Source: Bacteroidia bacterium (GTDB lineage: Bacteria > Bacteroidota > Bacteroidia > Cytophagales > Cyclobacteriaceae). From it: a stretch of 64,000 bases of DNA. The notes beneath the pieces are model-generated. The model saw only the letters and a list, made by a program, of their open reading frames with translations. It searched no databases and was not told the DNA's origin. A program made the translations under genes and the position numbers. The stretch is taken from NCBI GenBank assembly GCA_030430675.1, contig JAUIKU010000001.1:4152-68151 (forward strand), read 5' to 3'. Shown piece by piece: positions 3,461 through 41,565 of this stretch (its first letter is position 1; every line of letters starts with the position of its first letter).

Positions 3461-4786
3461 ATGGCAAAGACATTAGAAGAAGTTCATCAGGACGTGTTGA
3501 CGGTCGGCAAGAAATTGCAAGACCTTGGTCCTGAAATTGATAAGAAGATTGATCTGATTAACGATCAGATCCAGAAAGCGGGTACCGAGTGGAAGAAGGA
3601 AGTTAAAGGCGATCTAAAAGAAGCCCTCGACCTTTACAGCAAGCTATCCGGCGATAAGGAAAAAGGGGAAAAGGCTTGGCACGAATTAGCCACCGACCAA
3701 CTGGCAGAGCTTGAAAAAAGTATCCAGCAAATCCAGGAATGGAAACCCAATAACCCTGCTCCCGAGACCAATAAGTTTCACCAGAAATTTATGGAGGTCA
3801 CCGAGAACGGGGAACGCCTGAAGAAAATGAAAGGTGAAGACGGCAACCGGGGCCAGAAGGATGAGGTTGTTATGGAGATTGAGCGCAAGGCGGTAGTAAC
3901 CGAGGCCGGAGCTTTGACAGGGGATGTAATTGTTCATGGTCGCGCCCCTGGGTTCAAGGTGAAGCCTGAAGAAGCCAATCACATACGCCAAATCATGCGA
4001 ACTGGTTTTACTGCATCAAACCGTTGGTGGCATGTAGCGGAAACCGGATACACCAATAACACCGCAGCTATCGCGGAAGGTGCCGCTTTCCCTCAGAACG
4101 ACTTCGACCTGACTCAGGTAGAGACTGTGAACAAAAAGCTGGCCGCTCACAAGAAGCTGTCCAACGAGATTTTGCAGGATTTACCAGGTGTGATGACTTA
4201 CGCCCAGGGTCGATTGATGACCAAAATGTTCCTTTTAGAAGACAATGAGGTTCTTTTGGCTGATGGTACTGGTCAGCATGTGGATTCTATCAACAACCAG
4301 GCTACCGCTTACGGTCCTGGAGCGTTGTTCCAGAACCTTTACGGCACAGGGGCAACCCGAATTGATGTATTGGGGACTGCTATCAACCAGGCCAGGGTGA
4401 CCACATCGGAAGGTTTGTACAATCCTAACGTGATCATTGTCCATCCAAGTGATGTGACTGTTGCTCAGTCTATCAAGCTGACTGACGATGATTACCTGTT
4501 AAGGGCTGCTTTGCTTACCGATGCTCCATTGCGAGTGAAGGGAGTGGGAACCTTTGAAACTACCGTACAGACTGCGGGAACCTACACTGTGGGCGATTTC
4601 AATCAAGGTGCTGAGTTGATAGACTCAGAAACCATGACCATTGAGATTTCCAACTCTGACCAGGATGACTTCATCAAGGATTTGGTAACCATCCGAATCA
4701 AAGAGCGAATCATACTTCCTGTGTACTTCACCGGTGCATTCATCAGCGGAACTTTTGCAGCTGGCATCACTTATTTGAACGCGTAA
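3461..4786 (+). CDS. Major capsid protein, HK97 fold, with N-terminal coiled-coil delta/scaffold domain
   Basis: At 441 aa it follows the protease. The first ~130 residues are charged and helical, followed by a capsid-like body (…NVIIVHPSDVTVAQSIKLTDDDYLL…). Confidence 0.85.
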   Translation: MAKTLEEVHQDVLTVGKKLQDLGPEIDKKIDLINDQIQKAGTEWKKEVKGDLKEALDLYSKLSGDKEKGEKAWHELATDQLAELEKSIQQIQEWKPNNPAPETNKFHQKFMEVTENGERLKKMKGEDGNRGQKDEVVMEIERKAVVTEAGALTGDVIVHGRAPGFKVKPEEANHIRQIMRTGFTASNRWWHVAETGYTNNTAAIAEGAAFPQNDFDLTQVETVNKKLAAHKKLSNEILQDLPGVMTYAQGRLMTKMFLLEDNEVLLADGTGQHVDSINNQATAYGPGALFQNLYGTGATRIDVLGTAINQARVTTSEGLYNPNVIIVHPSDVTVAQSIKLTDDDYLLRAALLTDAPLRVKGVGTFETTVQTAGTYTVGDFNQGAELIDSETMTIEISNSDQDDFIKDLVTIRIKERIILPVYFTGAFISGTFAAGITYLNA

Positions 4787-4812
4787 TTATCAGGAACCTA
4801 AACATATAAGTA

Positions 4813-5178
4813 ATGGCAATTAGTAAAGCAAAAGATGTCTGCATAAAGCCTTTTTATGGTGATGTGCAAGGCAAAGACGGCAAAATGGAGGCGCGCAGGT
4901 TTGCGCCCGGAAATATCGTAACCGGCCAGCGTGAAGAGGACCGCGAAAAGCGAAAAGCCCGCGGTGTGATCGGCTCAGAGGAAGACTTGAAAAAGTCTGA
5001 TCCAAGCTTGAAAAAACTGGCTGAAGGAGTCTGGCAACCTGACCCGGCATGGTTCAAGAAAAACGAGGGTTCTAACAGCCTGAAAAACCAGGCGAAGGCC
5101 ATCGTTGAAGCGGCCAAGGCAGAAGCAGAACAAATTCTGAAAGACGCCAAGGCAGAAGCATCTAAAGCAACAAAGTAA
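4813..5178 (+). CDS. Hypothetical phage head-associated protein (Lys/Ala/Glu-rich C-terminus)
   Basis: It lies between the capsid and connector genes. No family was recognised. The antisense ORFs listed over it are discounted. Confidence 0.5.
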   Translation: MAISKAKDVCIKPFYGDVQGKDGKMEARRFAPGNIVTGQREEDREKRKARGVIGSEEDLKKSDPSLKKLAEGVWQPDPAWFKKNEGSNSLKNQAKAIVEAAKAEAEQILKDAKAEASKATK

Positions 5179-5181
5179 CCA

Positions 5182-5793
5182 ATGTTTGATACTGACAATA
5201 TCGGACTTCAAACTGAGGTGACCACAGATCCACAAGGGCCTCCGGTAACCACTCCGGAGGTTCTTAACTACCTCAAAGCCCAATACGGGACCGATGCTGT
5301 AGAGGATGCGCTTGTCGATATAATGACCAACAAAGCGGTGGATTTACTTCAGGATTATACGGGCTTGAGTTTTATCACTCAGACACGCAAGATCTTCTTA
5401 GAAAGCTATGGGGAGAAAGTGCCAATACCTTATGGCCCGGTGCAGTCAGTAACCAGTGTATCAAGATTGGAGAACGGTGTAGCAACCGCCTTAGTGCAAG
5501 GCACAGATTACTACCTGTTAGGACTTAATGAGAAGTATCTAAAGTTCAGCAAGGTTTGGAAATCTGGGGTCTTGACCGATTACTCATTGGAGGTGGAATA
5601 TATCGCGGGGTTTACCGATCACAATGAGTTAGAGGATTTCCCGGATGGTCTAAAGGAGCCAATTTTTAGGCAAATCAATGATGATTACTACTACCGCAGC
5701 GAGTATTCAGAAGACGGGTTAACAACCCTCTCAAAGAATGCTATGAACGCGATACCGCCTAATTATGTGAAAAAAGCAACGGGAATCTGGTGA
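5182..5793 (+). CDS. Head-tail connector protein (gp6-like, putative)
   Basis: The call rests on position and size in an HK97-like module. Its stop overlaps the next start. Confidence 0.55.
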   Translation: MFDTDNIGLQTEVTTDPQGPPVTTPEVLNYLKAQYGTDAVEDALVDIMTNKAVDLLQDYTGLSFITQTRKIFLESYGEKVPIPYGPVQSVTSVSRLENGVATALVQGTDYYLLGLNEKYLKFSKVWKSGVLTDYSLEVEYIAGFTDHNELEDFPDGLKEPIFRQINDDYYYRSEYSEDGLTTLSKNAMNAIPPNYVKKATGIW

Positions 5794-7275: not shown

Positions 7276-7683
7276 ATGGCAGAAGATGCGATTGATATAG
7301 GGGTAACCATAGGGGGCAATCTGGTTTCCTGTGCCACCGATATTAGTTGGGATTATGTACAAAATGTTGAGAACCCAGACCCCTGTAAAGGGGATGCGGC
7401 CAATCAGTACATAGCCCCGGCACGAAGTGGTAAGGAGGTCAGGGGAACCTTGCGAGGGCTCATAGATTATGCGTCCACACAGGGACACCAGGAACTTAAA
7501 ACCGCTTGGCTCAACAACACCGATATCACTATTGTGATTGCGGGGCCGGACTCAGGAGATGACCAGGATACTATTGTGGCTATCCTTACCCGGGTGGGTG
7601 GTCAGGCAGGCTCCACGGGAAAAGGCGGCTATGATGCTGACTTTGTGGGTGACGGTACCGCACCAGTAGTAGACACCGTGTAA
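7276..7683 (+). CDS. Major tail protein (putative)
   Basis: This 135-aa ORF lies immediately upstream of the chaperone pair and the tape measure gene. Confidence 0.6.
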   Translation: MAEDAIDIGVTIGGNLVSCATDISWDYVQNVENPDPCKGDAANQYIAPARSGKEVRGTLRGLIDYASTQGHQELKTAWLNNTDITIVIAGPDSGDDQDTIVAILTRVGGQAGSTGKGGYDADFVGDGTAPVVDTV

Positions 7684-7686
7684 GAA

Positions 7687-8133
7687 ATGAGGATGGCAAC
7701 GGAAAAAATCAATTTCGGAGGTCAGGAACGGCAATTCTTGTTTTCTGTTTACATCACTTCGGTTTTTTCAGACCGGTTTCCCTCAGACATACTTACCCTT
7801 TTAAGGCAAGATCAGATCATGTTCTTCTTGAAAGTGGGCATGGTGTGTTTGGAGGAGGGCGACAAAGATTTACCGAAAGACTTTGACTTTAGAATGTATT
7901 GCTCCTGGTGGGACGAAGCACCAAAATCGATCAAACAGCAGATCAAGCGGGGAATCCGCAAGGTCTACGACTTGGGAGGTGCTGAAGATGACATTATGGA
8001 GCAGTTCAAGGCACTGGTGGAAAGTATGACCGATGAGGAGCGGGCTAAGGCCAAGAAGATCATTGTAGATGGTCTACCAAAAAACGGGAAGGGGGCGAAA
8101 AGCCCCCAAGTCCCAGAACGTGGAGCCAAATAG
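7687..8133 (+). CDS. Tail assembly chaperone (G-like, zero-frame product)
   Basis: It lies between the major tail and tape measure genes and contains the slippery heptamer 16 codons before its stop. Confidence 0.7.
   Translation: MRMATEKINFGGQERQFLFSVYITSVFSDRFPSDILTLLRQDQIMFFLKVGMVCLEEGDKDLPKDFDFRMYCSWWDEAPKSIKQQIKRGIRKVYDLGGAEDDIMEQFKALVESMTDEERAKAKKIIVDGLPKNGKGAKSPQVPERGAK
8079..8085 (+). promoter_or_regulatory. -1 programmed ribosomal frameshift site A_AAA_AAC
   Basis: Zero-frame codons are CCA AAA AAC (…LPKNG…), with 8080 in phase with ATG 7687. The -1 frame is open from 8049 to 8432. Confidence 0.65.
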
Positions 8134-8432: not shown

Positions 8433-10074
8433 TTTAGCGGCGGAAATAGGAGCGGATATTAGTGAGTTAAGGCGGGACATGCGCCAGGCACTCGGAATCA
8501 TTGAAAATTTTGAGAAGGACGCTACCCGGAACACTAATAATTTAGGAGATGTCTTTAAAGGTGTCTTTGCCGGCACTATTGTAGCTGATTTCGCTCAACA
8601 AGGAATACGGGCTATTCGTGAAATGGTGGTTGAGGGCGTACACCTTGCTGATGTAATGGCAGGGGTAGAACCAGCCTTTGAAAGGTTGGGGGACCCGTTG
8701 TTATTGAAAGATTTAGTTGACGCTACGGGTGGGGCGGTTACTAACCTGAACTTAATGAAGCAGGCTGTCCAGGCCAATAACCTGGGCTTGCCTATTCAGA
8801 CCCTTGCCAATCTATTTCAGGCAGCGTCTATCAGGGCGCGAGAAACGGGGGAATCCGTTGACTTCTTAACTAACTCCATAGTAACAGGTATCGGACGTAA
8901 AAGTCCGCTTATATTGGATAATTTGGGCATCTCGGCAGCCCAATTAAAAGAAGAACTTGGCGGGGTTTCTGTACAGGCAGCAAGCATTGGTGAGGTTGCC
9001 CAAGCTGTGGGAAATATTTTCCAAAAACAGATGGGGGATATGGGAGGCTCTGTTGCCGATGTGGTCAGTGAGGCCGATAAGCTAAAAACCGCTTTCACCA
9101 ATATTGCCACCGAAATAGGTGCAGCCCTACATCCGGCAATAACCACCGCCCAGAAACTGCTTGCAGATTGGCTTACAGAAGCAAAAGAAGCTATCCAGTT
9201 TGCCAGAACCGGGCTTTCTCCATTAAGTGGCACTGATGTACAGGAAATAGAGGAGCTAACACGGGCTTTCCAAAAAATGGGGGACGCGGCACGGGCCGAA
9301 GAATACGATCGCTTACAGGGGGCTTTGGCGTTAGCTGAAGAAGATGTTGAAAAATTCTCGGAAGCCTTAAAGCAGGCTGAATTTGAAAGAGCGAAGCGAG
9401 GTCTGGGAGGGTTTAGTACCGAGGTGGAGGCTGCGGAACAAAAACTAGATTCGGCACAAAAAGCGGTTTTAGCAATAAACACGCTGTTTGATAACTATGA
9501 AACCATACTCAACGGAGTTAAGTCCAGCACGGATAACCTTGCAGTTTCCACCGATACCCTAAAGGGGTCTTTTGATAAGTTATTTGAGCTTGAAACCTCT
9601 CCCTTTGGAGATTTTGCAGCACAGCTAAAGGCTATCCAAGATGCTCAGAATGAATTCAACCTATTGCAGGATATCTCAGGCTTGGCGGTTGGGCCTCCCC
9701 CTTCAGAAGCAGAAATAAACCGCTTTGTGGCAGAGAATGCCCCTGAAGAAGAAAAGATTACCGAATCTCTTATTAAACCCATCGAAGATGCCGAAAAGGT
9801 AGCCCTAAACTATCAATCTACCCTTTCAAGTCTATTCCAGACCATTTTTACCGAAGGCACCAAAGCGAAAGACATATTAGCTGAATTGGCCACAGGATTG
9901 ATTCCCGGTTTGCTGTCCAGCATCCCGATAGTTGGGCCTGCCCTCGGGGGGATATTTGGCGGTACGGCAAGAGGAATATTTTCTGAGCCCGGAAGTGTGA
10001 TATTATCCAATGGCGACATACGGGCTTCCATAGCATCTAATTCACGCACCAGGGACAATTTTGGAGGGTTCTAG
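8425..10074 (+). CDS. Tape measure protein
   Basis: At 549 aa it is Ala/Glu/Leu-rich and helical, with a Gly-rich hydrophobic segment near the C-terminus (…GLIPGLLSSIPIVGPALGGIFGG…). Its position is canonical. Confidence 0.8.
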   Translation: MSDLAAEIGADISELRRDMRQALGIIENFEKDATRNTNNLGDVFKGVFAGTIVADFAQQGIRAIREMVVEGVHLADVMAGVEPAFERLGDPLLLKDLVDATGGAVTNLNLMKQAVQANNLGLPIQTLANLFQAASIRARETGESVDFLTNSIVTGIGRKSPLILDNLGISAAQLKEELGGVSVQAASIGEVAQAVGNIFQKQMGDMGGSVADVVSEADKLKTAFTNIATEIGAALHPAITTAQKLLADWLTEAKEAIQFARTGLSPLSGTDVQEIEELTRAFQKMGDAARAEEYDRLQGALALAEEDVEKFSEALKQAEFERAKRGLGGFSTEVEAAEQKLDSAQKAVLAINTLFDNYETILNGVKSSTDNLAVSTDTLKGSFDKLFELETSPFGDFAAQLKAIQDAQNEFNLLQDISGLAVGPPPSEAEINRFVAENAPEEEKITESLIKPIEDAEKVALNYQSTLSSLFQTIFTEGTKAKDILAELATGLIPGLLSSIPIVGPALGGIFGGTARGIFSEPGSVILSNGDIRASIASNSRTRDNFGGF

Positions 10075-12128
10075 TGATTAGCGAACTACGATATCGAGCC
10101 AACATCAAAAGCGAGAATGACCGCCACTGGCGTATATGGGTATATGTACCGGGTACCTCCTATGTTGTATCCAACAACAATGCTGCCCAGTGGTATAACG
10201 AGAATGGAGAAGGTGTATATCAAATAGGGAAATATATTAACACCGAAGTAGGGCATAGTTGGATAGTGTCAGGCAGCCAGTATGAATCTAATAACGGACG
10301 GCTAAAGTTCATAACGCAAATAACTACTGCGGGCAACGGTGATAAGAAGTATCATTTCTCTGATACGGTAACCGAAGGTTCAGAGCCAGACGATATAACA
10401 ATTAACGTGGAGCCGGTAGTGGAATTTGACACGTTAGAACCGATCTGGCAGCTAGGAAGGAAAACCAATATTTCAGCAACCAATATCACCAGCAAGTTTG
10501 AGGCCATCCAGCCAAGCGAGTTTATACTCCCCATGTTTGATCCTACCGGGGATAGTTATTCTGACATCTTCGAGGCCGGTCACCAGCAGTGCATAGTGCA
10601 GATATTCGAAGGGGTACTAAACTACCAGGACCCTTACTGGACGGGGCGAAGTGTGGCCCAGGAATGGAAAGAGCGGGCTCAGGATGTATTGTACTACAAG
10701 GAAGCGGTGTTTAGCTGTGGGTTACAATCGGCCTCTGAGACGGGGTTTCACTGGCAGGACAACCCCGATGGCAACCACAGCTGGATGAAGACAATTAAAA
10801 ACTGCTTCGCTGATGGTGCCGGGATTGCTTTACCTATTCATGAGAACATTAATATCTATCGCACTACTGATGATACAGATGATAACGACAGTGTATTAAC
10901 CCAAAGGGATTGGAGCATAGAGCGGTATTTCGGCCGGACTTTCCTAGACCCGGTTAGAGATATTATGCAGCAGACCGTTTCAAGGGTGTTCCAATGGAAC
11001 GGTGCATGGATACTGCAAAGGATTAATGAGCTATCAGGGGAGTATTTGCAAAGGAGTTTCGATGCTGACGGGGTATTTGTTTCCTCTCAATGGCTGGGAA
11101 GTTCAGCACAGAATATAGGATCCGTAGAGCAGTCCAGGGACAGCAACTTTATAATTACAGTGGGTGCTGCTCCTAAAGTGGTTGTTACTTATGATGGATA
11201 TTATCCGGAAGAAAACGCAGTTGTAAACGGGTGGTTTGAAGAGTGGGACAACGAAGGCAACCCGCCTGAAAGCTGGTCATTAACAGGGACCAACTTCATA
11301 GAAAGGAGCCTGGTTAGAGAGACAGGGAGTTACTCAATTAAGATAACGCCTACTTCCGGCGTATTCAACTACTTGCAACAAACTTTATTAGCCAGAACCG
11401 AAGGGGAGTTGACCTTTGTTGTCAAGCCGTTTGCCAATACTCCCACGGTGATCGCCCAGCAGAACAACGTTCTTTTCTGGTCCCTGCAAAACAACAGTAC
11501 CGGGAATTGGTATGATTTGGAGAATGATAACTGGTCAGCGGTAGAGGTCAAGAACGATTTGACTTTACAATTCAGCCAGACCTCCAACAGATTTTACCAA
11601 GTAAACTACACCATTGACCAAGACCCTGCCGGGGGTGGCACCTTTTCGACACTCAGGATTTATGAAAGAACTTTTACCGGAGGGGATGGCGTCTACCTAG
11701 ATAGGGTCACTTATTTGGATGCCAACAACGGAACAACGGTAAGCGGAGAGCCTATTTTTGATCCTAGAGAGATTCCTATTGAGGCCACTAATAACCCGGA
11801 GGAAATCGGCACGGATCCAGCCGACATACAGTACAATGTAGGGCAGCCCATTGATAATTGGAACCTGTGGAAACGAAGGGGAGAAAGCACGGGCCAGCAC
11901 CCCGCTCAGTTAATAGTTCAGACGCTAGAAGAGGAGTCCAACGAAAACCAGAAGGTGTTAAAGTGTGAATTTTCGCATGGGTTCTTAAACCTAATGCTGC
12001 CCATATCCTGGAAGGGAGACAGATATATCCAAAACGGAGTGGAGTTTAATTTGGCGAAAGGAACGTGGAAGGGGCAGTGGGTTCAATTGATTTCTTCACC
12101 TCACTATACTGAATTGCCACAGATATGA
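10074..12128 (+). CDS. Tail tip/baseplate protein with a carbohydrate-binding-like segment (putative)
   Basis: It follows the tape measure gene. The segment NGWFEEWDNEGNPPESWSLTG…YSIKITP resembles CBM-type jelly-roll starts. Confidence 0.5.
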   Translation: MISELRYRANIKSENDRHWRIWVYVPGTSYVVSNNNAAQWYNENGEGVYQIGKYINTEVGHSWIVSGSQYESNNGRLKFITQITTAGNGDKKYHFSDTVTEGSEPDDITINVEPVVEFDTLEPIWQLGRKTNISATNITSKFEAIQPSEFILPMFDPTGDSYSDIFEAGHQQCIVQIFEGVLNYQDPYWTGRSVAQEWKERAQDVLYYKEAVFSCGLQSASETGFHWQDNPDGNHSWMKTIKNCFADGAGIALPIHENINIYRTTDDTDDNDSVLTQRDWSIERYFGRTFLDPVRDIMQQTVSRVFQWNGAWILQRINELSGEYLQRSFDADGVFVSSQWLGSSAQNIGSVEQSRDSNFIITVGAAPKVVVTYDGYYPEENAVVNGWFEEWDNEGNPPESWSLTGTNFIERSLVRETGSYSIKITPTSGVFNYLQQTLLARTEGELTFVVKPFANTPTVIAQQNNVLFWSLQNNSTGNWYDLENDNWSAVEVKNDLTLQFSQTSNRFYQVNYTIDQDPAGGGTFSTLRIYERTFTGGDGVYLDRVTYLDANNGTTVSGEPIFDPREIPIEATNNPEEIGTDPADIQYNVGQPIDNWNLWKRRGESTGQHPAQLIVQTLEEESNENQKVLKCEFSHGFLNLMLPISWKGDRYIQNGVEFNLAKGTWKGQWVQLISSPHYTELPQI

Positions 12129-12595
12129 TACAGCAGGTAAAACATGGCGCGGTGTTGAGGTTGTTTGTCAACAATGAAGTGTTGGCATTGGCTAAGAACT
12201 ATACTCTAACCTGGACCACCGAACCGGTAGAGCGAACCCCTTCCAATGCCGGGAAATGGCGAAGTGTGAGGGGTGGTAAATGCGGGTGGTCTCTGTCAGC
12301 AGACTATCTAATAAGCAAGACCGAGGGGAACCTTCAGCGACTAGTGGGATGGTTTAAGCAAGGGGATTCGATCCCATTTACAATGGATGACACTGACAAC
12401 GAGATACATGACTATTTCGGTGACGGATTGATAACAAATATTCAAAAAACTGCTTTGTCTAACCGGTGGGCAGGATTCAACTTTCAGGTATTGGGTGACG
12501 GTGAGCTTAATGATGTAGCTCCAGAACACCAATTAGCTGTTGATGAGCTTGTTGATAATTGGGTTGATGAAAGCGGACTATTTATGGAGGGATAA
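12125..12595 (+). CDS. Phage tail-associated hypothetical protein
   Basis: It is coupled to its neighbour by an ATGA overlap. Position only. Confidence 0.4.
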   Translation: MIQQVKHGAVLRLFVNNEVLALAKNYTLTWTTEPVERTPSNAGKWRSVRGGKCGWSLSADYLISKTEGNLQRLVGWFKQGDSIPFTMDDTDNEIHDYFGDGLITNIQKTALSNRWAGFNFQVLGDGELNDVAPEHQLAVDELVDNWVDESGLFMEG

Positions 12596-34175: not shown

Positions 34176-35752
34176 AAGTGAATAACCTGTACAGGTTGGT
34201 ACTGGGAATTTCCCTGTTGGGAAGTCTGATGCTGGTTCCCTCCTGTAAAAAGCCTAATACCAATTACAACGTATTGTTTATCCTGGTAGATGATCTGGGC
34301 CATAGAGACCTCAGCATTACCGGCAGTCAGTTTTATGAAACCCCCAATGTAGATGCTATCGCCAGGGAGGGCATGGTATTTACCCAGGGGTATGCCGGAT
34401 CCAGGGTCTGTAGTCCCTCCAGGGCTACCCTTATGACAGGGAAGTTTACTGCCCGGCATGGCATTACAGACTGGATAGGGGCCAGGTATGGAGAAGACTG
34501 GAGGCTACACCAACGCCATGATAAATTACTCCCGGCGGCATACAACTCCCATCTCGATCATGCTGAAGTCACCCTGGCAGAAGCCTTGAGATCAAAAGGT
34601 TATAAAACGTTCTATGCGGGAAAATGGCATCTGGGTGATGCGGGTTCCTATCCCGAGGACCATGGGTTTGATATTAATAAAGGTGGATGGGAAAAGGGAT
34701 CTCCTATGGGTGGGTATTTCTCTCCCTGGGAAAACCCCAGTTTACCAAACCACAGTCCCGGTGAGAATTTATCCATGCGATTGGCCCGGGAAACCGCTTC
34801 ATTTATCAAGGAAAACAAAGACTCCGCTTTTTTTGCTGTACTGGCATTCTACGCCGTTCACAGCCCCATCCAGACCACCAGGGAAAAATGGCATAAATAT
34901 CGCCGGAAAGCGGAACAGGCAGGGATAGATTCCACGGGCTTCGACATGGAGCGGGTGCTGCCGATACGAGAGGTCCAGGACAATCCGGTTTACGGAGGCC
35001 TGGTGGAAACTATGGATGATGCCGTGGGGCTGGTACTGGATGAACTGACCCGGCTGGGATTGGATGATAATACCATCGTGGTTTTTACCTCCGACAATGG
35101 CGGTGTCTCCTCCGGAGATAATTACTCTACTTCAAATTTGCCACTTAGAGGAGGAAAGGGCTATCAGTGGCAAGGGGGCTTAAGGGTGCCTTTTTTTATC
35201 CGGGTACCCGGATTGCCAGCCGGTAGCAGCGATTACCCCGTTACCGGTGCGGATTTTTACCCCACGTTGCTGGATTTGTTGGGGTTGCCTTTGAACCCCG
35301 ATCAGCATCAGGACGGGATAAGTGTGAAGTCCGTCATTGAAGGCCAGGAAGACCCAACTCCCAGGGCTTTGTTTTGGCATTATCCGCACTATGGAAACCA
35401 GGGGGGAGAGCCTTCATCTATTGTGTTGGATCATCCCTGGAAGTTGATCCATTATTGGGAAGATAACAGAGTGGAACTATACCAGATTACGGAAGATATC
35501 CATGAGGATCGTAACGTATCGGATCAGTTTCCGGATAAAAGAGACCAGTTATCTCAGCAGTTGGATAACTATCTAAATAGGATGGAAGCCAGTTTGCCCG
35601 ATCCTGATCCGGAATTTGATTCTCTTCAGGCAATCAACAGAAGGCATTATTTAACTACGGAGTGGAAATCCCGGTTGGAAAAACAAAGACTGGGTTTTTT
35701 ATCTCCCGATTTTCAGCCTGACAGTACCTGGTGGGGCAGTGAACCGCAGTAA
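34172..35752 (+). CDS. Sulfatase (formylglycine-dependent), lipoprotein
   Basis: The C-x-P-x-R motif is present (RVCSPSRATLMTGK) with a lipobox-like LMLVPSCKK. Its start overlaps the lactonase gene as ATGA. Confidence 0.9.
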   Translation: MKVNNLYRLVLGISLLGSLMLVPSCKKPNTNYNVLFILVDDLGHRDLSITGSQFYETPNVDAIAREGMVFTQGYAGSRVCSPSRATLMTGKFTARHGITDWIGARYGEDWRLHQRHDKLLPAAYNSHLDHAEVTLAEALRSKGYKTFYAGKWHLGDAGSYPEDHGFDINKGGWEKGSPMGGYFSPWENPSLPNHSPGENLSMRLARETASFIKENKDSAFFAVLAFYAVHSPIQTTREKWHKYRRKAEQAGIDSTGFDMERVLPIREVQDNPVYGGLVETMDDAVGLVLDELTRLGLDDNTIVVFTSDNGGVSSGDNYSTSNLPLRGGKGYQWQGGLRVPFFIRVPGLPAGSSDYPVTGADFYPTLLDLLGLPLNPDQHQDGISVKSVIEGQEDPTPRALFWHYPHYGNQGGEPSSIVLDHPWKLIHYWEDNRVELYQITEDIHEDRNVSDQFPDKRDQLSQQLDNYLNRMEASLPDPDPEFDSLQAINRRHYLTTEWKSRLEKQRLGFLSPDFQPDSTWWGSEPQ

Positions 35753-36310
35753 ATCCGCACCAGCCCAGGTGTGGCCTGAAAGCCTTTTTGCTGCTCCGTT
35801 AATGACTGGTGGCAGCCCATTGCCACTTAAGGCAAAGGTTTTTATCGAGAAGTCTACATCATTTCGCCTAAGTTCACCCAGGTATAAAGTCTTGATATCC
35901 GATTGGTCACGTACGGCTTTTTGCACCGGTCCGGATAAGTATATTCCACCCGGCTCAGCAATAGCCCGCAGCCGGGAAGCAATAATTTCGCAGTCATTTG
36001 AGATCTCACTTTCCTCTTTTTGAATTTTTCCCAGATGAATACCGATACGCAACTCCAAATCATATTCCCTTAGATGTTCCTGAATTTCCAGGGCACAGTA
36101 AACTGCATCGGAAGCTTGGTTGAAAGTACTCATTGCACCGTCACCCACTTCTTTCCACCAATTTCCTTCGAATTCCTCTACCAGGCGCTTTTGAACGGTC
36201 CTGCTCAGCTGCATATCGTTTAGCGCCTTGGTTTCGTTCTTTCCCATCAGGGCACTATATCCAACTATATCTGTGAACATTATTGCAGTCAGATATCTTC
36301 CCTGTGACAT
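35699..36310 (-). CDS. Soluble class III adenylate/guanylate cyclase domain protein
   Basis: It carries AIMFTDIVGYSALMG…EVGDGAMSTF…GIHLGKI. Its 3' end overlaps the sulfatase 3' end by 54 nt (convergent). Confidence 0.75.
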   Translation of the reverse strand: MSQGRYLTAIMFTDIVGYSALMGKNETKALNDMQLSRTVQKRLVEEFEGNWWKEVGDGAMSTFNQASDAVYCALEIQEHLREYDLELRIGIHLGKIQKEESEISNDCEIIASRLRAIAEPGGIYLSGPVQKAVRDQSDIKTLYLGELRRNDVDFSIKTFALSGNGLPPVINGAAKRLSGHTWAGADLLRFTAPPGTVRLKIGR

Positions 36311-36510
36311 GAATATTGGTTTAACTCTTTAATATAAACTATCCGGTACTTAAAAAACGAGCGTCGTACGGGCACGGTATTCGGGATACAGTTCACTTTA
36401 ATACACCAGTTAGTAGTTGGGATTAAAATAGGTAACCCGGGCGCGATGTAAATTTTTTTGTATCTTTTCTAGGTTACTTTTTCCGGTAACAATTACCAAT
36501 CAGTAGCAAC

Positions 36511-37071
36511 ATGTCAGAACAGGAGATATTTGAGAATATTCAAGCGGGTGATAAAAAGGCCCTGGAACAAGTGTATAGATCCAATCGGGAATCAATAATT
36601 AACTGGATTACCAGAAAACACAGTTGTTCACTGGAAGAGGCCAAAGATATATATCAGGACGCCATTGTGATTTTTTACAACAATGCGGTAAAGGGTAAAA
36701 TATCCGAGATCAACTTTAGTATCAGCTCTTATTTACACGAAGTGGTGAGAAGACAATTTTTAAACAAATTAAAGAAAGAGAACCGGATGAGCCGGGGGCT
36801 TTCGGGCTTTTTACAGGCTCCGGAGGCGTCGAATCTGGAAAGCGAACACCTCTTCGAGCAGAAATTAGAACTGGTACACAAAGCGATGCAGGAGATGAGT
36901 GAAGCCTGTAAGCAACTCATTAAACTAAGGTATTATTCCAACATGGACATGCAGGCCATATGCCAGCAGCTGGGCTATAAAAACCCGGATACCGCCAAGA
37001 ATTTAAAGTATAAATGCATGCGCATTCTCAGGAGGAAGGTCAATACCATGACCATGGGAATGCAAATATAA
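36511..37071 (+). CDS. ECF-type RNA polymerase sigma-70 family factor
   Basis: Region 2-like (…DIYQDAIVIFYNN…) and region 4-like (…CKQLIKLRYYSNMDMQAICQQLGYKNPDTAKNLKYKCMRIL) segments are present. Confidence 0.8.
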   Translation: MSEQEIFENIQAGDKKALEQVYRSNRESIINWITRKHSCSLEEAKDIYQDAIVIFYNNAVKGKISEINFSISSYLHEVVRRQFLNKLKKENRMSRGLSGFLQAPEASNLESEHLFEQKLELVHKAMQEMSEACKQLIKLRYYSNMDMQAICQQLGYKNPDTAKNLKYKCMRILRRKVNTMTMGMQI

Positions 37072-37077
37072 CAGCCA

Positions 37078-37860
37078 ATGAAGAGTGAATATATAGATAT
37101 GTTTGATACCTACTTCTCCGGAATGCTCACTGAGCAGGAGCGGATGGATTTTGAGACTAGATTGAAATCCGATTCAAAACTAGATCAGGCATTTCAGGAG
37201 TACAGCCATTTAAGACGAGGTATAGATTATTCCATTATGAAATCCTTGAAAGAAGAACTACAGGAGCTGGAAGCCAGTCTGCCTGAGATCGAACTGGAAC
37301 CAGATGTTAAACGGATCATTAACCGAAAAACCCACGGGCATCGCAACCTGTGGTGGAGAGCAGCGGCAATTATTGTCATCGTGGCGATTTCCGCTACTGT
37401 TCTCCTGTTACAGATGCAGCGACCCTCAAACCCCCAGGATCTTTTCAGCCAGCATTTCGAACCCTATGAAAACCAATTTGTAAGCGCCAAAAGAGGAGAT
37501 GATATAGCTTCTGATCCGTTGGTGCAGGCATTTCAGGCATATGATGCAGGAGACTATGCTGCTGCCGTTGCCGGGTTCGAATCGATCCTGGGGCATGAGA
37601 GGTACCAGGAGGAAAACAACATGCTGCTATTTTTTATGGGTAGTGCACAACTGGCCCAGGATCAAAGTCAGCAGGCCATTATTACTTTCGAACAGTTTCT
37701 GGAGCAATCAGGAGAGCATGTCGCAGAGGCCAAATGGTACCTGGCGTTGAGCTATCTGAATGAAAACAGGGTCGATGATGCTCAAGGCCTGTTGGTTGAG
37801 CTACGGTCAAATGAGAAATATGAAAAAGAGGCTGACAGTATACTGAAGCAGTTGAAATAA
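37078..37860 (+). CDS. Putative anti-sigma factor: single-pass membrane protein with periplasmic TPR-like domain
   Basis: It starts 6 nt after the sigma gene. The TM segment is WWRAAAIIVIVAISATVLLL. The C-terminus has helical repeats (…AAVAGFESIL…AIITFEQFL…KWYLALSYL…). Confidence 0.55.
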   Translation: MKSEYIDMFDTYFSGMLTEQERMDFETRLKSDSKLDQAFQEYSHLRRGIDYSIMKSLKEELQELEASLPEIELEPDVKRIINRKTHGHRNLWWRAAAIIVIVAISATVLLLQMQRPSNPQDLFSQHFEPYENQFVSAKRGDDIASDPLVQAFQAYDAGDYAAAVAGFESILGHERYQEENNMLLFFMGSAQLAQDQSQQAIITFEQFLEQSGEHVAEAKWYLALSYLNENRVDDAQGLLVELRSNEKYEKEADSILKQLK

Positions 37861-37900
37861 TAGTCCAGAGGCACCCTTATTTCCCCTAGAACGTATTAAT

Positions 37901-37920
37901 TTAAGTATTCGAATACTTAA
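37901..37920. promoter_or_regulatory. Perfect 20-bp palindrome TTAAGTATTCGAATACTTAA
   Basis: Read directly. It lies 28 nt upstream of the ATG at 37948 and 41 nt after the anti-sigma stop. Confidence 0.6.
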
Positions 37921-37947
37921 TATCTAACCTTAAAATTTTAAAAAATT

Positions 37948-38424
37948 ATGCCAGTTGAAGCAGATAGTCAGGACTCAAGAGATCCTAATTCTCCCCAGTG
38001 GGGTTATGTAAAAGTTCAGAATCCGGAAGACGGTTTACAATATCCGGCAAAGGATGATAACTGGAATGAGTATGTCATGTTTGTTCATGATCAACAGGTA
38101 ATCCCCATAGAGGGATTTGACCCCAAGCAGGGAAAAGTACCTGCCAGAACAAAACTTGAATGCGTTATGGTTCCGGCTAGCTTGACTATTGGCAGTCACA
38201 AACAGCTAAAACAACAAATAACCAGTGCGATTAACTCCTGCAATCCGGCTGATCAAAGGACTTTGAACGAATTAAATAAAACTTTGGCGTACCTGGAAGA
38301 AAAAGAATTTGATGAAATTTCCATTCCAAGCCGGCAAAAGCAAGAAAAGAATGCATCCGATGATGGCACATTGATACCAGATCGCACTACGCTTTGGGTA
38401 GCCCTGGTGGTTGGGTCAAAGTAG
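37948..38424 (+). CDS. Hypothetical protein (158 aa)
   Basis: The ORF has an ATG start and no recognised family. Its 3' end overlaps the CHAT gene 3' end by 9 nt (convergent). Confidence 0.45.
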   Translation: MPVEADSQDSRDPNSPQWGYVKVQNPEDGLQYPAKDDNWNEYVMFVHDQQVIPIEGFDPKQGKVPARTKLECVMVPASLTIGSHKQLKQQITSAINSCNPADQRTLNELNKTLAYLEEKEFDEISIPSRQKQEKNASDDGTLIPDRTTLWVALVVGSK

Positions 38425-41400
38425 GTTAAGGCCCACCGGATCCTTACGTTTTTTTAGCGCTTTTATTACAACTATCGCTAAGATTAGTGCGGTTAAGGCA
38501 ATTGCCGTAAACAACCAGGTGTTGGATGGTTTCACCACCGGCATTGTGGTTCCATGGACCACCATAGCTGCCCAGTAGTTGGGGTGTGACAGTGCTCCGG
38601 AATTTTCTGATAAGTATTTTAGTTTGGCCCCGCGCAAGGCCTGATCGACGCCCTCACCATTCTTAATTTGATGATAAAACTGTCCCAGGATTTCCGGGGT
38701 AGTTTTATCGCTTATTTTCCACAGGCTCATTACCGTCGTGGGGCAACCTGCGTAGGAGAAAGCTCTGGACATGCTGTAAACACCTTCACCACGGAAATTC
38801 CTTCCGGTCCCTGATTCACAGGCACTTAAAACTGCCAATCGGGCAGTTAGTCTCAAGTTATATAGTTCATAGGTATACAGGGGGTCGCTTTTGTTTTGGT
38901 CGTCAGGGGTCCGAAAAAGTAGACGGTTATTCAAGCGGGAAATAGTATCCGAGATCCCGTGGATAGCCAGATGAACAATGTCGAAGTCCCCGGCCTGGTT
39001 GAGGAACTGTTGTTTGGTTGCTTTCAGGCCTGAAAAAAACTGACCCTGGAGCTGTCCCTTTAAAAGTTCTATTTCTACTGCGGTTCCGGACAATTCGTTC
39101 TTTCCCCGCATGGCCTGTGGGTTGGGGTCGCTATGGCTAAATCCCAGGACTTTTAATTTTTGCCGTTGAGCGGTTGGTGCCATGGCCCAGAGATTAGCCG
39201 AATAGACGTAACTGGTAGAAAAATGATTTACCAGGTAATCCAGTTTGCTGTAGTCGTTATTGGGGCTTACCGGCTGGGTTATCACTAATCCTTCAAAAGG
39301 AATAAAGCGCAAAGGGCCATCAGCGGCGATTACCAGGGCATTACCTTCCAGTTCAATTCCGTAAAACAACTGCTGGTAAAGGTCCTGGGCAGTTTTAACA
39401 TAGTCGCGGAACTGGGATTCCTGGTTGGAGAATTGTGGAGGTGTCAGCAAATGACGCTGATAATCCAAAACCAATTGATTAACCGCTTTTATCGGTTTTT
39501 TGAAGAAGTCAATTTGCTGACCCCGCAGTACTACTGAAAATATGGAGCTGTCACCCCAGAAATAATTTATCAACGTTTGATTCTCTTGCCGGGACTGATG
39601 CTGAATGCGGGACAGATCCAGTAATTCATTTTCTAAGGCAGAAGCATAGGAGGGATAAGCAGCTTCCAGAGATTCCTTAAACTCATCTAGTGCAACAGTA
39701 GCTTCGAACAATTGGTCTTCCAGGTTTCTGATTTTCTGTACGTCCACCGTACTGCTGGCTTTTTCGTTTTCAAGATCCCTGGAAACGGAATCCATCCTGG
39801 ATCTAATGTTATTCTCTAAATGGATTAACGAGTCCGGCACGCCCACCATGCGACTTTGTTGCAAGTCACTAAAAGTATCAAACAGCAGCCTGGCCTTGCT
39901 GCTTTCGATAACAAAAAAAGCTGTTTCCAAATAAGTGTTGCTGCCGGTAAACTTATAAAGGGAATAACACAGGTTTAGGGCTTCTTCGAACAAGCCGTAA
40001 TAATCTTCAGCCATCAACAGGGTGGAGCCTTCCAGCAGGTACAACTGTTGATTTTGATCCATCAACTCCATTGCCAATAGCAACGTTTCCAATGAAAGCT
40101 CAAGCGTCTTCAGGTCTTTATTCGTGGTATAAGTCCGGTGCAATACTTTGCCTTTGCTGTACAGAGCCTGCAACAGGTTACCATCATCATCGTGAGAGTG
40201 CAGTGCTAATGTAGGATTGTCGGAAAGTTTATCACTGATGAATTCAGGACCTGAACCCGCAATTATGGCTTGCTGATGGTAGTATAAGGCAGAATCCAGT
40301 TGTCCCAGGTTTTCATAAAAAGTGCCCTTGGCACGCAAACTGGCAGAGGTTCTGAAATGTTTGGGACCATGGATCCGTTTTCTCAGCGCTATAGCCCGGG
40401 ACAGATAATAGTTAGCGGAATCGTAATGACCCAGTCCGTAATAATTGGTTCCTATATTTTGGTAAGCCAGAATGACCCCGTTCTGATCATTGATTCCGTG
40501 GTAAATTTCAAGTGATTGCTGATAATATTTATGAGCGCTGTGGTAATTATGGGTACTGGTATGGATACTACCAATCGACTGCAAGTAATTCGCCAGATTT
40601 CTTTGTTGAGAAATACTCAACGGTTTATGTTCCTGCAAAAGGTTAATGGCGATCGCATTGTAAGAAAGAGACTTTTCGAATTCATTTTTGTCCTGTAAAA
40701 CATTGGCGATCAGGCTATAACAGCGGGATTTTTTGAATGGGTTATTTTCGAAGAGAGAAAGTGTCTTTAACCCGTAGATCTCCGCTTTTTCCAAATCTCT
40801 CATTCCCCGGTAAGTCGATGCCAGGCTGTAGTAAATGTCGCCAACCGCTGTTGAATTCTCACAGTTAAGGCTGGCCAGTATATCATCCGCTTTTGACAGA
40901 TATTCCAGGGCCTTTAGGTTTTGGTCATCAAATGCCAACATATCTCCAATGCCGCGGTACCCTCTGGCCACATCTATATGATTCTCTCCGAAAAGATCAA
41001 TACGAAGTCCCAAGGACTGGTTGTACTCTGCCAGTGCTTTCTCTTTTTGTCCGTCCCAATCATAGCATATCCCGGTTATAAAATGTACCTCTGCAAGTTC
41101 AGAAGGGTTGTTCCCAAGATGTTTCTCAATGATCTCCAGATTCTCCTGAAGCATAGGGAAGGCACTATCTCTTCGTGAAGTGAATCGTAGACAATCTGCC
41201 CAGCGATTGCGGGCTTTTAGTAACCCTTCCCAATTTTGTTGTTGCTCAAACCTTTCTGCGGCCAACTGATAAAGAGCAAGTGCCTCGGTAAAGCGTTCTA
41301 CACTATATAACCTGTCTGCCTTATCGAGATAGGAATGCCGGTATGAAAGTTCCCAATAATCTGTGCAAGGATCAATGGTATTGGTGACGGAACCATTTAT

Positions 41401-41463
41401 TTGCGAATAAAGAGAAAAAAAATGAAGTGTAAACAGCAGGTTTAATAGTAATAACCGACCCAT
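38416..41463 (-). CDS. Secreted TPR-repeat CHAT-domain (caspase-like) protease with C-terminal TM anchor
   Basis: The signal peptide is MGRLLLLNLLFTLHFFSLYSQ. There are many TPR-like repeats. The CHAT dyad context is FDIVHLAIHG and LAVLSACESGTG. The C-terminal TM segment is WLFTAIALTALILAIVVI. Confidence 0.85.
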   Translation of the reverse strand: MGRLLLLNLLFTLHFFSLYSQINGSVTNTIDPCTDYWELSYRHSYLDKADRLYSVERFTEALALYQLAAERFEQQQNWEGLLKARNRWADCLRFTSRRDSAFPMLQENLEIIEKHLGNNPSELAEVHFITGICYDWDGQKEKALAEYNQSLGLRIDLFGENHIDVARGYRGIGDMLAFDDQNLKALEYLSKADDILASLNCENSTAVGDIYYSLASTYRGMRDLEKAEIYGLKTLSLFENNPFKKSRCYSLIANVLQDKNEFEKSLSYNAIAINLLQEHKPLSISQQRNLANYLQSIGSIHTSTHNYHSAHKYYQQSLEIYHGINDQNGVILAYQNIGTNYYGLGHYDSANYYLSRAIALRKRIHGPKHFRTSASLRAKGTFYENLGQLDSALYYHQQAIIAGSGPEFISDKLSDNPTLALHSHDDDGNLLQALYSKGKVLHRTYTTNKDLKTLELSLETLLLAMELMDQNQQLYLLEGSTLLMAEDYYGLFEEALNLCYSLYKFTGSNTYLETAFFVIESSKARLLFDTFSDLQQSRMVGVPDSLIHLENNIRSRMDSVSRDLENEKASSTVDVQKIRNLEDQLFEATVALDEFKESLEAAYPSYASALENELLDLSRIQHQSRQENQTLINYFWGDSSIFSVVLRGQQIDFFKKPIKAVNQLVLDYQRHLLTPPQFSNQESQFRDYVKTAQDLYQQLFYGIELEGNALVIAADGPLRFIPFEGLVITQPVSPNNDYSKLDYLVNHFSTSYVYSANLWAMAPTAQRQKLKVLGFSHSDPNPQAMRGKNELSGTAVEIELLKGQLQGQFFSGLKATKQQFLNQAGDFDIVHLAIHGISDTISRLNNRLLFRTPDDQNKSDPLYTYELYNLRLTARLAVLSACESGTGRNFRGEGVYSMSRAFSYAGCPTTVMSLWKISDKTTPEILGQFYHQIKNGEGVDQALRGAKLKYLSENSGALSHPNYWAAMVVHGTTMPVVKPSNTWLFTAIALTALILAIVVIKALKKRKDPVGLNLL

Positions 41464-41565
41464 AACAATTGTGAAAAGTGCATAATTTAGAGATTTTAGC
41501 TCCTTGATACAATGACTATCACTCAGAAATAATATATTGTCTCAGCCCCTGATTTAGCGAAGGAT

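Follow-up and report, generated by a model that had tools for sequence, protein, structure and literature searches.

Organization of the locus

The genes described here lie in a 64,000-nucleotide stretch of contig JAUIKU010000001.1 (assembly GCA_030430675.1) from a Bacteroidia bacterium of the family Cyclobacteriaceae; this whole stretch is referred to as the window, and positions are given on it. They encode a sigma factor of the extracytoplasmic function (ECF) type, a candidate anti-sigma factor, and an exported protein with tetratricopeptide repeats (TPR) and a caspase-like CHAT protease domain, for which the anti-sigma factor is the candidate substrate. The ECF sigma gene (36511–37071, forward strand, 186 aa) is followed 6 nt past its stop codon by the anti-sigma candidate gene (37078–37860, forward strand, 260 aa) and then by the gene of a small protein, orf158 (37948–38424, forward strand, 158 aa). 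The TPR-CHAT gene (38416–41463, reverse strand, 1015 aa) is convergent with the sigma and anti-sigma genes. Other neighbors in the window encode a sulfatase, an AI-2E transporter, and an Omp85 protein.

A preliminary description, made from the sequence alone, had listed the sigma factor, the single-pass TPR membrane protein, the 158-aa open reading frame (ORF), and the convergent 1015-aa gene, and all four were found where it had placed them. The position 35699 at which it let the module begin belongs, however, to a fifth gene that it had not listed, a truncated remnant of a class III nucleotide cyclase (35699–36310, reverse strand, 203 aa), which is divergent from the sigma gene. The earlier observation is confirmed, whereas its interpretation, in which the CHAT protein was either a site-1-like protease of the anti-sigma factor or an ECF-regulated effector, is partly supported.

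Protein components of the module

The sigma protein passed the NCBIfam ECF superfamily model TIGR02937 with 66.1 bits (cut-off, 42.9), and its Pfam sigma70 matches were just under their cut-offs (r2, 23.3 against 24; r4_2, 20 against 25.7). With 186 aa and the sigma2 and sigma4 domains only, it is an ECF (group 4) sigma-70 factor. The subgroup is marked by the motif KNLKYKC in sigma4, and sigma factors of the same subgroup adjoin CHAT homologs in distant loci.

The anti-sigma candidate has a single transmembrane (TM) helix at residues 93–113 (37354–37416; WRAAAIIVIVAISATVLLLQM), and weak TPR matches were found within its C-terminal 110 residues, at residues 187–245. Its predicted architecture over 37078–37860 of the forward strand is a cytoplasmic N-domain, the TM helix, a periplasmic tether, and a small TPR domain. 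The score of 24.8 bits with the anti-sigma family model NF052375 (cut-off, 100) does not assign the protein to the class I/ZAS (zinc-binding anti-sigma) group, and no His/Cys motif of the HxxxCxxC zinc type was found in residues 1–90. We infer its anti-sigma role because its gene starts 6 nt past the sigma gene, because it has a single TM helix, and because it is conserved together with the sigma factor.

The 1015-aa protein matched the CHAT family (PF12770; 167.6 bits, E = 5e-49) and carries a TPR_12 array of approximately 600 residues. Its N-terminus resembles a signal peptide, MGRLLLLNLLFTLHFFSLYS|Q, ending in ...LYS|Q (41401–41463); a Gln after the cleavage site is usual in exported proteins of Bacteroidota (the “Q-rule”). 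A TM helix at residues 983–1005 (38449–38517) starts only about 10 residues after the protease domain and is followed by KKRK. The signal peptide, TPR array, His/Cys dyad, C-terminal TM helix, and basic tail that the preliminary description had noted were all found and recur in homologs: almost all homologs of the Bacteroidota type possess the signal peptide, the TM helix at the C-terminus, and the basic tail, and more distant (Acidobacteriota-like) relatives keep the signal peptide and have no anchor. The catalytic residues are His835 (codon 38959–38961, reverse strand), in HLAIHG starting at residue 831, where the next Gly is likewise conserved, a feature common to all clan CD families, and the invariant Cys882 (codon 38818–38820, reverse strand), in LSACESG starting at residue 879. 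Both residues were invariant in 33 of the 33 aligned homologs and in all 84 of the 84 homologs encoded in the collected loci.

The AlphaFold2 model of the protein (pLDDT 86.5, pTM 0.83) showed, in the CHAT domain, the order strand 772–776, helix 794–804, strand 807–811, helix 817–826, strand 829–833, and His835. The pair H835-G836 follows strand 829–833, and C882 follows strand 876–879. Foldseek matched the model best with DdvA (8rw5/8rot, 8.6e-15), then with Csx29 (8eey_B, 1.3e-14; TM-score 0.57 on the target) and separase (4e-14). When the CHAT domain alone was searched against PDB sequences, DdvA was the sole match (E = 0.003), with an alignment spanning both catalytic motifs; the same search with the full protein or with a profile was swamped by TPR proteins. 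By its Pfam match and by the His-Gly/Cys dyad at consecutive strand ends, the protein belongs to the CHAT proteases of clan CD. The model, in addition, places it in the separase/craspase/DdvA-type architecture, with a TPR superhelix packed on a C-terminal CHAT domain. To judge from its sequence, the protease looks active and periplasmic, and since no more than about 10 residues separate the protease domain from the TM helix, the active site would lie near the periplasmic face of the membrane.

Conservation of the module across loci

A metagenome scan with the alignment of 33 CHAT sequences yielded 80 loci with 23–55% identity. In the loci of close orthologs, L002 (62%), L003 (43%), and L086, the whole neighborhood was shared, including the sulfatase, cyclase, and AI-2E transporter genes; therefore, these loci alone prove no linkage. 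The distant loci, in turn, had unrelated flanks. In L004 (28% identity), which is flanked by gyrase and fatty-acid hydroxylase genes, the CHAT gene converges on the gene of a TPR protein with an ECF gene behind it, and in L001 (27%, Saprospiraceae) it converges on the gene of a 300-aa protein, likewise preceded by a sigma gene. In L005 (26%), there is a 4-bp overlap between the sigma gene and the CHAT stop. The module of L005 is rearranged: a 441-aa anti-sigma-like gene (3979–5304, reverse strand) lies upstream of the CHAT gene and divergent from it, and the sigma gene is at 8871–9443 on the forward strand.

For a count of linkage, hidden Markov models built from the gathered sigma and anti-sigma sequences were run against six-frame ORFs, and TM-anchored CHAT homologs with at least 2.5 kb of downstream sequence were considered (n = 47). 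A sigma gene of the same subgroup was found within 3 kb of 31 of these 47 genes. In the usual layout, the sigma gene is followed by the anti-sigma gene, which converges with the CHAT gene, with 3′ ends abutting or overlapping; the three are co-directional in a minority of loci. The reverse look-up gave the same picture: the anti-sigma orthologs were located on contigs that agree in length with those of the CHAT orthologs, and the divergent anti-sigma homologs P0133, P0158, and P0156 each had a CHAT gene within a few kilobases (3/3).

The neighborhood count bears out the association that the preliminary description had proposed. Its caveat that the linkage was one of adjacency only, the CHAT gene being convergent, no longer applies, because most of these loci show the layout of the window, so that the convergent arrangement is itself conserved. 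Since the linkage is kept in distant loci with unrelated flanks, these sequence comparisons support the view that the ECF pair and the exported TPR-CHAT protein form a functionally linked module conserved across Bacteroidota.

A conserved arginine in the anti-sigma tether

Alignment of the anti-sigma proteins revealed a common tether motif, (L)[FY]xx[YF][FY]xP[YF]......R[GS], with the first TPR helix (AxxxYxxGxY) following 15–17 residues on. In 31 non-redundant anti-sigmas, the column of the tether Arg held R in 26, M in 3, K in 1, and a misaligned R in 1. The Arg is located approximately 25–35 residues past the TM helix, and the residue after it was G or S in 19 of 23 proteins. In the window, the corresponding codons are those of R139 and G140 (37492–37497, forward strand), 26 residues after the TM helix, which we regard as the predicted CHAT cleavage site (P1-P1′). 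The preliminary description had suggested that the CHAT protein might be a site-1-like protease acting on the TPR anti-sigma factor. The idea of such a protease gains from the covariation described below, whereas the candidate target indicated by the sequences is the juxtamembrane tether and not the TPR domain.

Covariation of the tether residue with Glu797 of the CHAT domain

The putative partner of the tether Arg is Glu797 (codon 39073–39075, reverse strand), the predicted S1 specificity residue, in helix 794–804. From the order of elements before the dyad in the model, this helix corresponds to alpha1 of the caspase fold. Residue 797 was E in 79 of the 84 locus-encoded homologs and in 110 of 118 database homologs. 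Among 55 conserved CHAT columns (at least 80%), it was the sole one that differed in all three loci with Met in the tether column, where it was replaced by G, F, and A. In an all-against-all scan of 12 anti-sigma and 53 CHAT columns, the pair R139-E797 ranked first of 636, with a raw p-value of 1.7e-3. The raw value was no better because the automated alignment had misplaced three Arg residues and taken in two false anti-sigmas; curation consisted of realigning the former and dropping the latter. In the curated table, Arg or Lys occurred with Glu797 in 32 loci, and Met, Met, Met, and Val occurred with Gly, Phe, Ala, and Phe, respectively, in four (L008, L037, L056, and L089), with no discordant locus.

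A prospective set was then drawn from database homologs with an intact dyad and a residue other than Glu at 797, namely P0045 (F), P0046 (L), P0050 (S), and P0044 (V), whose loci were fetched only afterwards. Three of the four loci contained a sigma/anti-sigma pair, with the tethers ...PTTL|GYAD, ...PVLM|SQSE, and ...PVAM|GAST, all lacking the Arg; the fourth contig was too short to show the pair. Thus, in all homologs without E797 and with a visible anti-sigma, the tether Arg was absent. The final count was 32:0 and 0:7 (Fisher p ~6.5e-8, uncorrected for phylogeny). On a maximum-likelihood tree with weak deep branches, proteins without Glu797 occupied three or more places.

In clan CD proteases, S1 specificity is determined on alpha1/L1, L4, and L5 (PMC4357240). 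Enzymes of this clan that cleave after P1 Arg have an acidic residue on alpha1, such as D365 of MALT1, D163 of gingipain R, which forms a bidentate salt bridge, and D95 of TbMCA2, and the Leu-specific MARTX-CPD has Ala47 at the alpha1 position that reads P1 (PMC4357240). By analogy with these enzymes and with the model as a guide, a P1/S1 relation would predict just such combinations: Glu on alpha1 where the tether has Arg, and a residue that is hydrophobic or small where it has Met, Leu, or Val. Since the minority modules pair a P1 Met, Leu, or Val with a non-acidic residue 797, the specificity appears to co-evolve pair by pair.

Promoter motifs of the sigma and CHAT genes

The regions upstream of the sigma gene (36311–36510) and of the CHAT gene (41464–41565), for which a shared ECF-type promoter had been considered in the preliminary description, proved to be different: each shared its own conserved blocks with L002 and L003, and GGTTAC was present on the sigma side alone. 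In the window, this motif lies at 36472–36477 (forward strand), 39 nt 5′ of the sigma ATG and behind an A/T-rich tract, and in the alignment with L002 and L003 the shared blocks include it at 39–40 nt before the ATG. It was also found at −39 to −44 in six additional, distant loci (L004, L007, L038, L048, L064, and L065). Overall, 7 of 31 loci had GGTTAC in front of the sigma gene, compared with 0.07 expected from shuffles, and it was essentially missing upstream of the CHAT genes (1/28). The CHAT upstream regions were instead mildly enriched in the TAnnTTTG box of the Bacteroidetes housekeeping type (6/28; 1.5 expected). We consider GGTTAC to be a candidate sigma-dependent (autoregulatory) promoter element. 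With the motif practically lacking in front of CHAT genes, the CHAT gene seems not to belong to the sigma regulon; to judge from these upstream sequences, its independent expression is more likely, which would fit an upstream component of the pathway.

A second, inverted copy of GGTTAC (36432–36437, reverse strand) faces the cyclase gene and is kept in L002 and L003. The two inverted copies flank a common A/T tract between the sigma and cyclase genes, and in the 64-kb window just these two sit in an A/T-rich intergenic context. The arrangement resembles a divergent pair of promoters of one type, in which case the cyclase would belong to the sigma regulon in the relatives; alternatively, it could be a palindromic operator.

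Proposed mechanism and alternative explanations

In regulated intramembrane proteolysis of the DegS/RseP-RseA type, a periplasmic site-1 cut of the anti-sigma factor is followed by an intramembrane site-2 cut and by release of the sigma factor. In Myxococcus, DdvA is an anti-sigma factor with a fused periplasmic TPR-CHAT part, and it was proposed to be cut in its tether by its own CHAT domain before RseP acts (PMC11506125). From the sequence features above and the analogy with DdvA, we consider it rather probable that the module is a split analog of DdvA/DdvS, in which the CHAT protein serves as the site-1 protease that cuts the anti-sigma tether and thereby frees the sigma factor.

In the resting state, the anti-sigma factor would use its cytoplasmic N-domain to keep the ECF sigma factor at the inner membrane, as is familiar from the protein family. 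The TPR-CHAT protein, probably expressed from a housekeeping-type promoter of its own rather than from a sigma-dependent one, as the mild box enrichment hints, would be exported and anchored C-terminally in the same membrane. According to its sequence and model, its active site would then be near the periplasmic face and within reach of the tether site 26 residues from the TM helix of the anti-sigma factor. Some cue, probably read by the long TPR array, would trigger cleavage after Arg139 (R|G), the P1 Arg being read by Glu797 in S1, as the covariation and the clan CD precedents suggest. Loss of the periplasmic TPR domain would leave an anti-sigma stub open to a site-2 protease of the RseP type, by analogy with DdvA and with regulated intramembrane proteolysis, and the sigma factor would be set free. 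It would then transcribe its own operon from the GGTTAC promoter, including the downstream small beta-rich protein or proteins, and in the relatives its output would probably also include the divergent membrane cyclase. The gene linkage, topology signals, dyad invariance, tether motif, covariation, and promoter difference are properties read directly from the sequences, whereas cleavage, the site-2 step, the kind of signal, and the use of GGTTAC as a sigma-dependent promoter are predictions of the scheme.

Several observations weigh against this proposal. The raw p-value of the R139-E797 pair does not withstand correction for 636 tests until the alignment is curated, and the context GLPxxM is common to four of the seven non-Arg loci, which may represent one lineage, so that the independent switches may number only three to four. 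Approximately one third of the anchored CHAT homologs had no sigma gene in the available flank, and E797 is also conserved in CHAT homologs without a sigma gene in the flank or without a visible anti-sigma; therefore, E797 may serve other substrates. The closeness of E797 to the dyad would follow from the topology of the model and from family analogy. The window stems from a biofloc metagenome, and a search of sequencing runs for its sequence returned metagenomic DNA runs only and no RNA run. Finally, the covariation equally fits a tether that occupies the active site as an uncut pseudosubstrate.

The last point leads to the main competing explanation, which we consider unlikely but weightier than the others. 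The tether R139 would sit in the S1 pocket in the manner of securin and keep the protease inhibited or docked; the CHAT substrates would be other envelope proteins, and the sigma pathway would report on dissociation, or be released by it, rather than by anti-sigma cleavage. The R139/E797 covariation shows engagement of the active site and not cleavage, separase is held by a securin pseudosubstrate, and the Arg of the gingipain R prodomain occupies S1 without efficient cleavage (PMC4357240). The conservation of E797 even where no anti-sigma is visible also agrees with such a role. On the other hand, the small P1′ residue (G/S in 19/23) is typical of a cleavable site, and the location of the tether between a TM helix and a folded domain matches the site-1 logic and the DdvA proposal. 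Moreover, a stable 1:1 inhibitor would be expected to be co-transcribed more often, whereas the genes here are usually convergent. A partnership without proteolysis seems more improbable still: the TPR-CHAT protein would be a periplasmic co-receptor or scaffold that binds the TPR domain of the anti-sigma factor, with a protease that is irrelevant or self-directed. TPR modules in both proteins suit protein–protein contacts, and the CHAT site of DdvA was described as incomplete; however, both dyad residues (H835 and C882), the Gly next to H835, and many nearby residues are invariant at 21–28% identity, and the covarying residue lies in the protease domain and not in the TPR array.

The other role named in the preliminary description, that of an ECF-regulated effector, would place the CHAT protein among the outputs of the sigma factor, perhaps as a protease of envelope quality control or defense, and without action on the anti-sigma factor. 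The co-directional or overlapping arrangement with the sigma/anti-sigma genes in L005, L037, L055, L088, L091, and L092 would mean co-expression there. However, the distribution of GGTTAC (1/28 CHAT upstream regions against 7/31 of the sigma genes) and the dominant convergent layout speak against it, and the R139/E797 covariation would be left unexplained; we rate this explanation slightly below the scaffold. Adjacency by chance, or mere synteny of close relatives, is practically negligible. L002, L003, and L086 do share their whole neighborhood, but the linkage persists at 24–30% identity with unrelated flanks, and the count of 31/47 together with the 3/3 reverse look-ups refutes it. The linkage also greatly exceeds the base rate of a few percent at which some ECF gene would be expected within 3 kb, a value that we estimated ourselves from the ~22 ECFs per Bacteroidetes genome (PMC7826278).

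The site-1 proposal can be extended further, with correspondingly more reserve. Exported TPR-CHAT proteins may form a widespread and so far undescribed class of dedicated site-1 proteases of ECF anti-sigma factors in Bacteroidota, each with its own co-evolving P1/S1 code; this generalization is possible but tentative, and the chances seem to us nearly balanced, leaning somewhat to doubt. The code within such a class, Arg with Glu797, or Met, Leu, or Val with a hydrophobic or small residue, is put forward with the same reserve.

Lineage-specific genes and elements

The product of orf158 had been called an orphan. No Pfam or NCBIfam match was indeed found for it; nevertheless, it belongs to a real, narrow family, of which only 38 representatives turned up in a set of 1.8 billion proteins. 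The family has an N-terminal motif QDSRxPxSPQWGY, in which QDSRxPxxxQxG is invariant, and a C-terminal motif LWVAxV. One to three paralogs lie between the anti-sigma and CHAT genes in L002, L003, and L086, that is, in the Cyclobacteriaceae-like relatives only (one ortholog contig carries the label Cyclobacteriaceae), and in the majority of distant loci the position is empty. The model of the protein (pLDDT 68.8) consists of five strands and a helical hairpin, and a fold search of the PDB gave no match. A cold-shock or OB-fold (oligonucleotide/oligosaccharide-binding) assignment, considered from the strand pattern, was dropped: there was no Pfam match, no relative with a cold-shock domain was found among the 38 family members, and Foldseek matches to OB domains of tRNA synthetases were insignificant (E > 1), which left the idea unproven. 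The small protein is probably a lineage-specific output of the sigma operon rather than part of the core. The third orf158 paralog of L086 has a copy of GGTTAC in front of it. A paralog in this locus (7321–8013, forward strand) has a C-terminal extension of several hydrophobic helices, which suggests that some members of the family are membrane proteins.

Between the anti-sigma gene and orf158, the window contains a perfect 20-bp palindrome, TTAAGTATTCGAATACTTAA (37901–37920), which was not conserved in L002, L003, and L086. These three loci share, approximately 20 nt before each small gene, an element resembling AACCTTAAAT.

In the same three loci, the cyclase orthologs measure 435–474 aa and include TM helices as well as a FlgO-like periplasmic domain. 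The cyclase of the window loses similarity after residue 183 and extends into the sulfatase gene at its 3′ end; in addition, the conserved stretch GDIFS(E/D)GVN (GDxxxxGVN) is replaced by SEISNDCEI. From its sequence, the gene looks decayed, and it is possibly a former member of the sigma regulon rather than a part of the core module. A second cyclase near such a module was seen in an unrelated locus, L091, where a class III cyclase with TM2 and TPR domains (11089–12456, reverse strand) lies 3 kb from a triad of the Met type. Intervening genes of other kinds also occurred between the CHAT and anti-sigma genes: a 263-aa protein with a weak thermolysin (M4) match in L004 (9014–9805, forward strand), 651-aa and 151-aa proteins of unknown function in L089 (1227–3641, reverse strand), and an exported Q/N-rich protein of 410 aa in L090 (7875–9107, forward strand). 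These may be lineage-specific outputs or substrates.

Comparison with known systems

ECF sigma factors constitute the third major route of bacterial signal transduction, with ~22 per genome in Bacteroidota (PMC7826278), and the activating step of most of those in Bacteroidota is an open problem. In the preliminary description, CHAT proteases were noted as best known from cytoplasmic defense contexts, and a periplasm-facing one beside an ECF pair was taken to hint at a different role. Such an arrangement is not without precedent: DdvA precedes it (PMC11506125), and a second link between CHAT and ECF-type factors is provided by Craspase, which cuts the sigma-binding protein Csx30 (PMC10028731). 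Our literature search found no paper describing a split sigma/anti-sigma/TPR-CHAT module of Bacteroidota.

Like the module, the Craspase system (Cas7-11/Csx29/Csx30/RpoE) ties a TPR-CHAT protease to a protein that binds an ECF-type sigma factor, but it is cytoplasmic, RNA-guided, and CRISPR-associated, whereas the module is, from its sequence, periplasmic and membrane-tethered. PADLOC detected no cas genes or defense systems in the window and returned generic TPR matches and a weak cyclase match only. Membership in the craspases and a defense-island reading, with CBASS or CRISPR as for DdvA, were therefore dropped, the neighbors being the sulfatase, AI-2E transporter, and Omp85 genes. A CHAT gene in a conserved ECF neighborhood is also known from ECF54 of Actinobacteria, whose genetic context includes carboxypeptidase, subtilase, and CHAT proteins and for which proteolytic control was proposed (PMC8999054). 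That group differs from the module in its phylum and architecture and in having no anti-sigma factor.

With the DegS/RseP-RseA pathway, the module shares the proposed logic. That pathway relies on a shared serine protease for site 1, whereas the module would use a clan CD cysteine protease with a co-evolving P1/S1 pair and a gene adjoining that of its substrate. If the proposal is true, caspase-like proteases join the enzymes that start regulated proteolysis of anti-sigma factors, and many unexplained genes annotated as “CHAT domain-containing protein” would become easier to annotate. If the proteins do form a dedicated site-1 class, the P1/S1 code would insulate parallel pathways and make the substrate predictable from the sequence.

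The closest known system is DdvA/DdvS of Myxococcus xanthus (PDB 8rot/8rw5). In both systems, an ECF sigma factor is under a single-pass membrane protein and a periplasmic TPR-CHAT part with a His-Cys dyad, and cleavage is proposed in a flexible tether by the TM helix, with RseP to follow. DdvA, however, combines the anti-sigma domain, TM helix, and TPR-CHAT in one polypeptide, whereas here a separate 260-aa anti-sigma protein and the CHAT protein are the products of two convergent genes; the module would work in the manner of DdvA but is not itself of the DdvA type. Where DdvA has an N-terminal anti-sigma domain and TM helix ahead of its CHAT part, the CHAT protein of the module carries a cleavable signal peptide and is anchored at its C-terminus. 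Its anti-sigma factor shows no zinc motif of the CHCC/ZAS kind and retains just a small TPR domain. DdvA is tied to a CBASS-CRISPR island, in contrast to the module, near which there is no CBASS or CRISPR regulon, and reports of DdvA-like fusions are confined to Myxococcota and one Comamonas, whereas the module belongs to Bacteroidota. A defining trait of the DdvA type is a CHAT active site that lacks the three-helix motif of craspase and separase. For DdvA, the only TPR-CHAT anti-sigma factor studied, there is no defined cleavage site, proven protease activity, or known signal. The split module, in comparison, places the protease and its candidate substrate on two proteins and offers a defined candidate P1/S1 pair (R139/E797). 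Since the covariation names both a candidate scissile bond, R139|G140, and a candidate specificity residue, E797, the proposed mechanism is directly testable by simple mutants and an in vitro assay.

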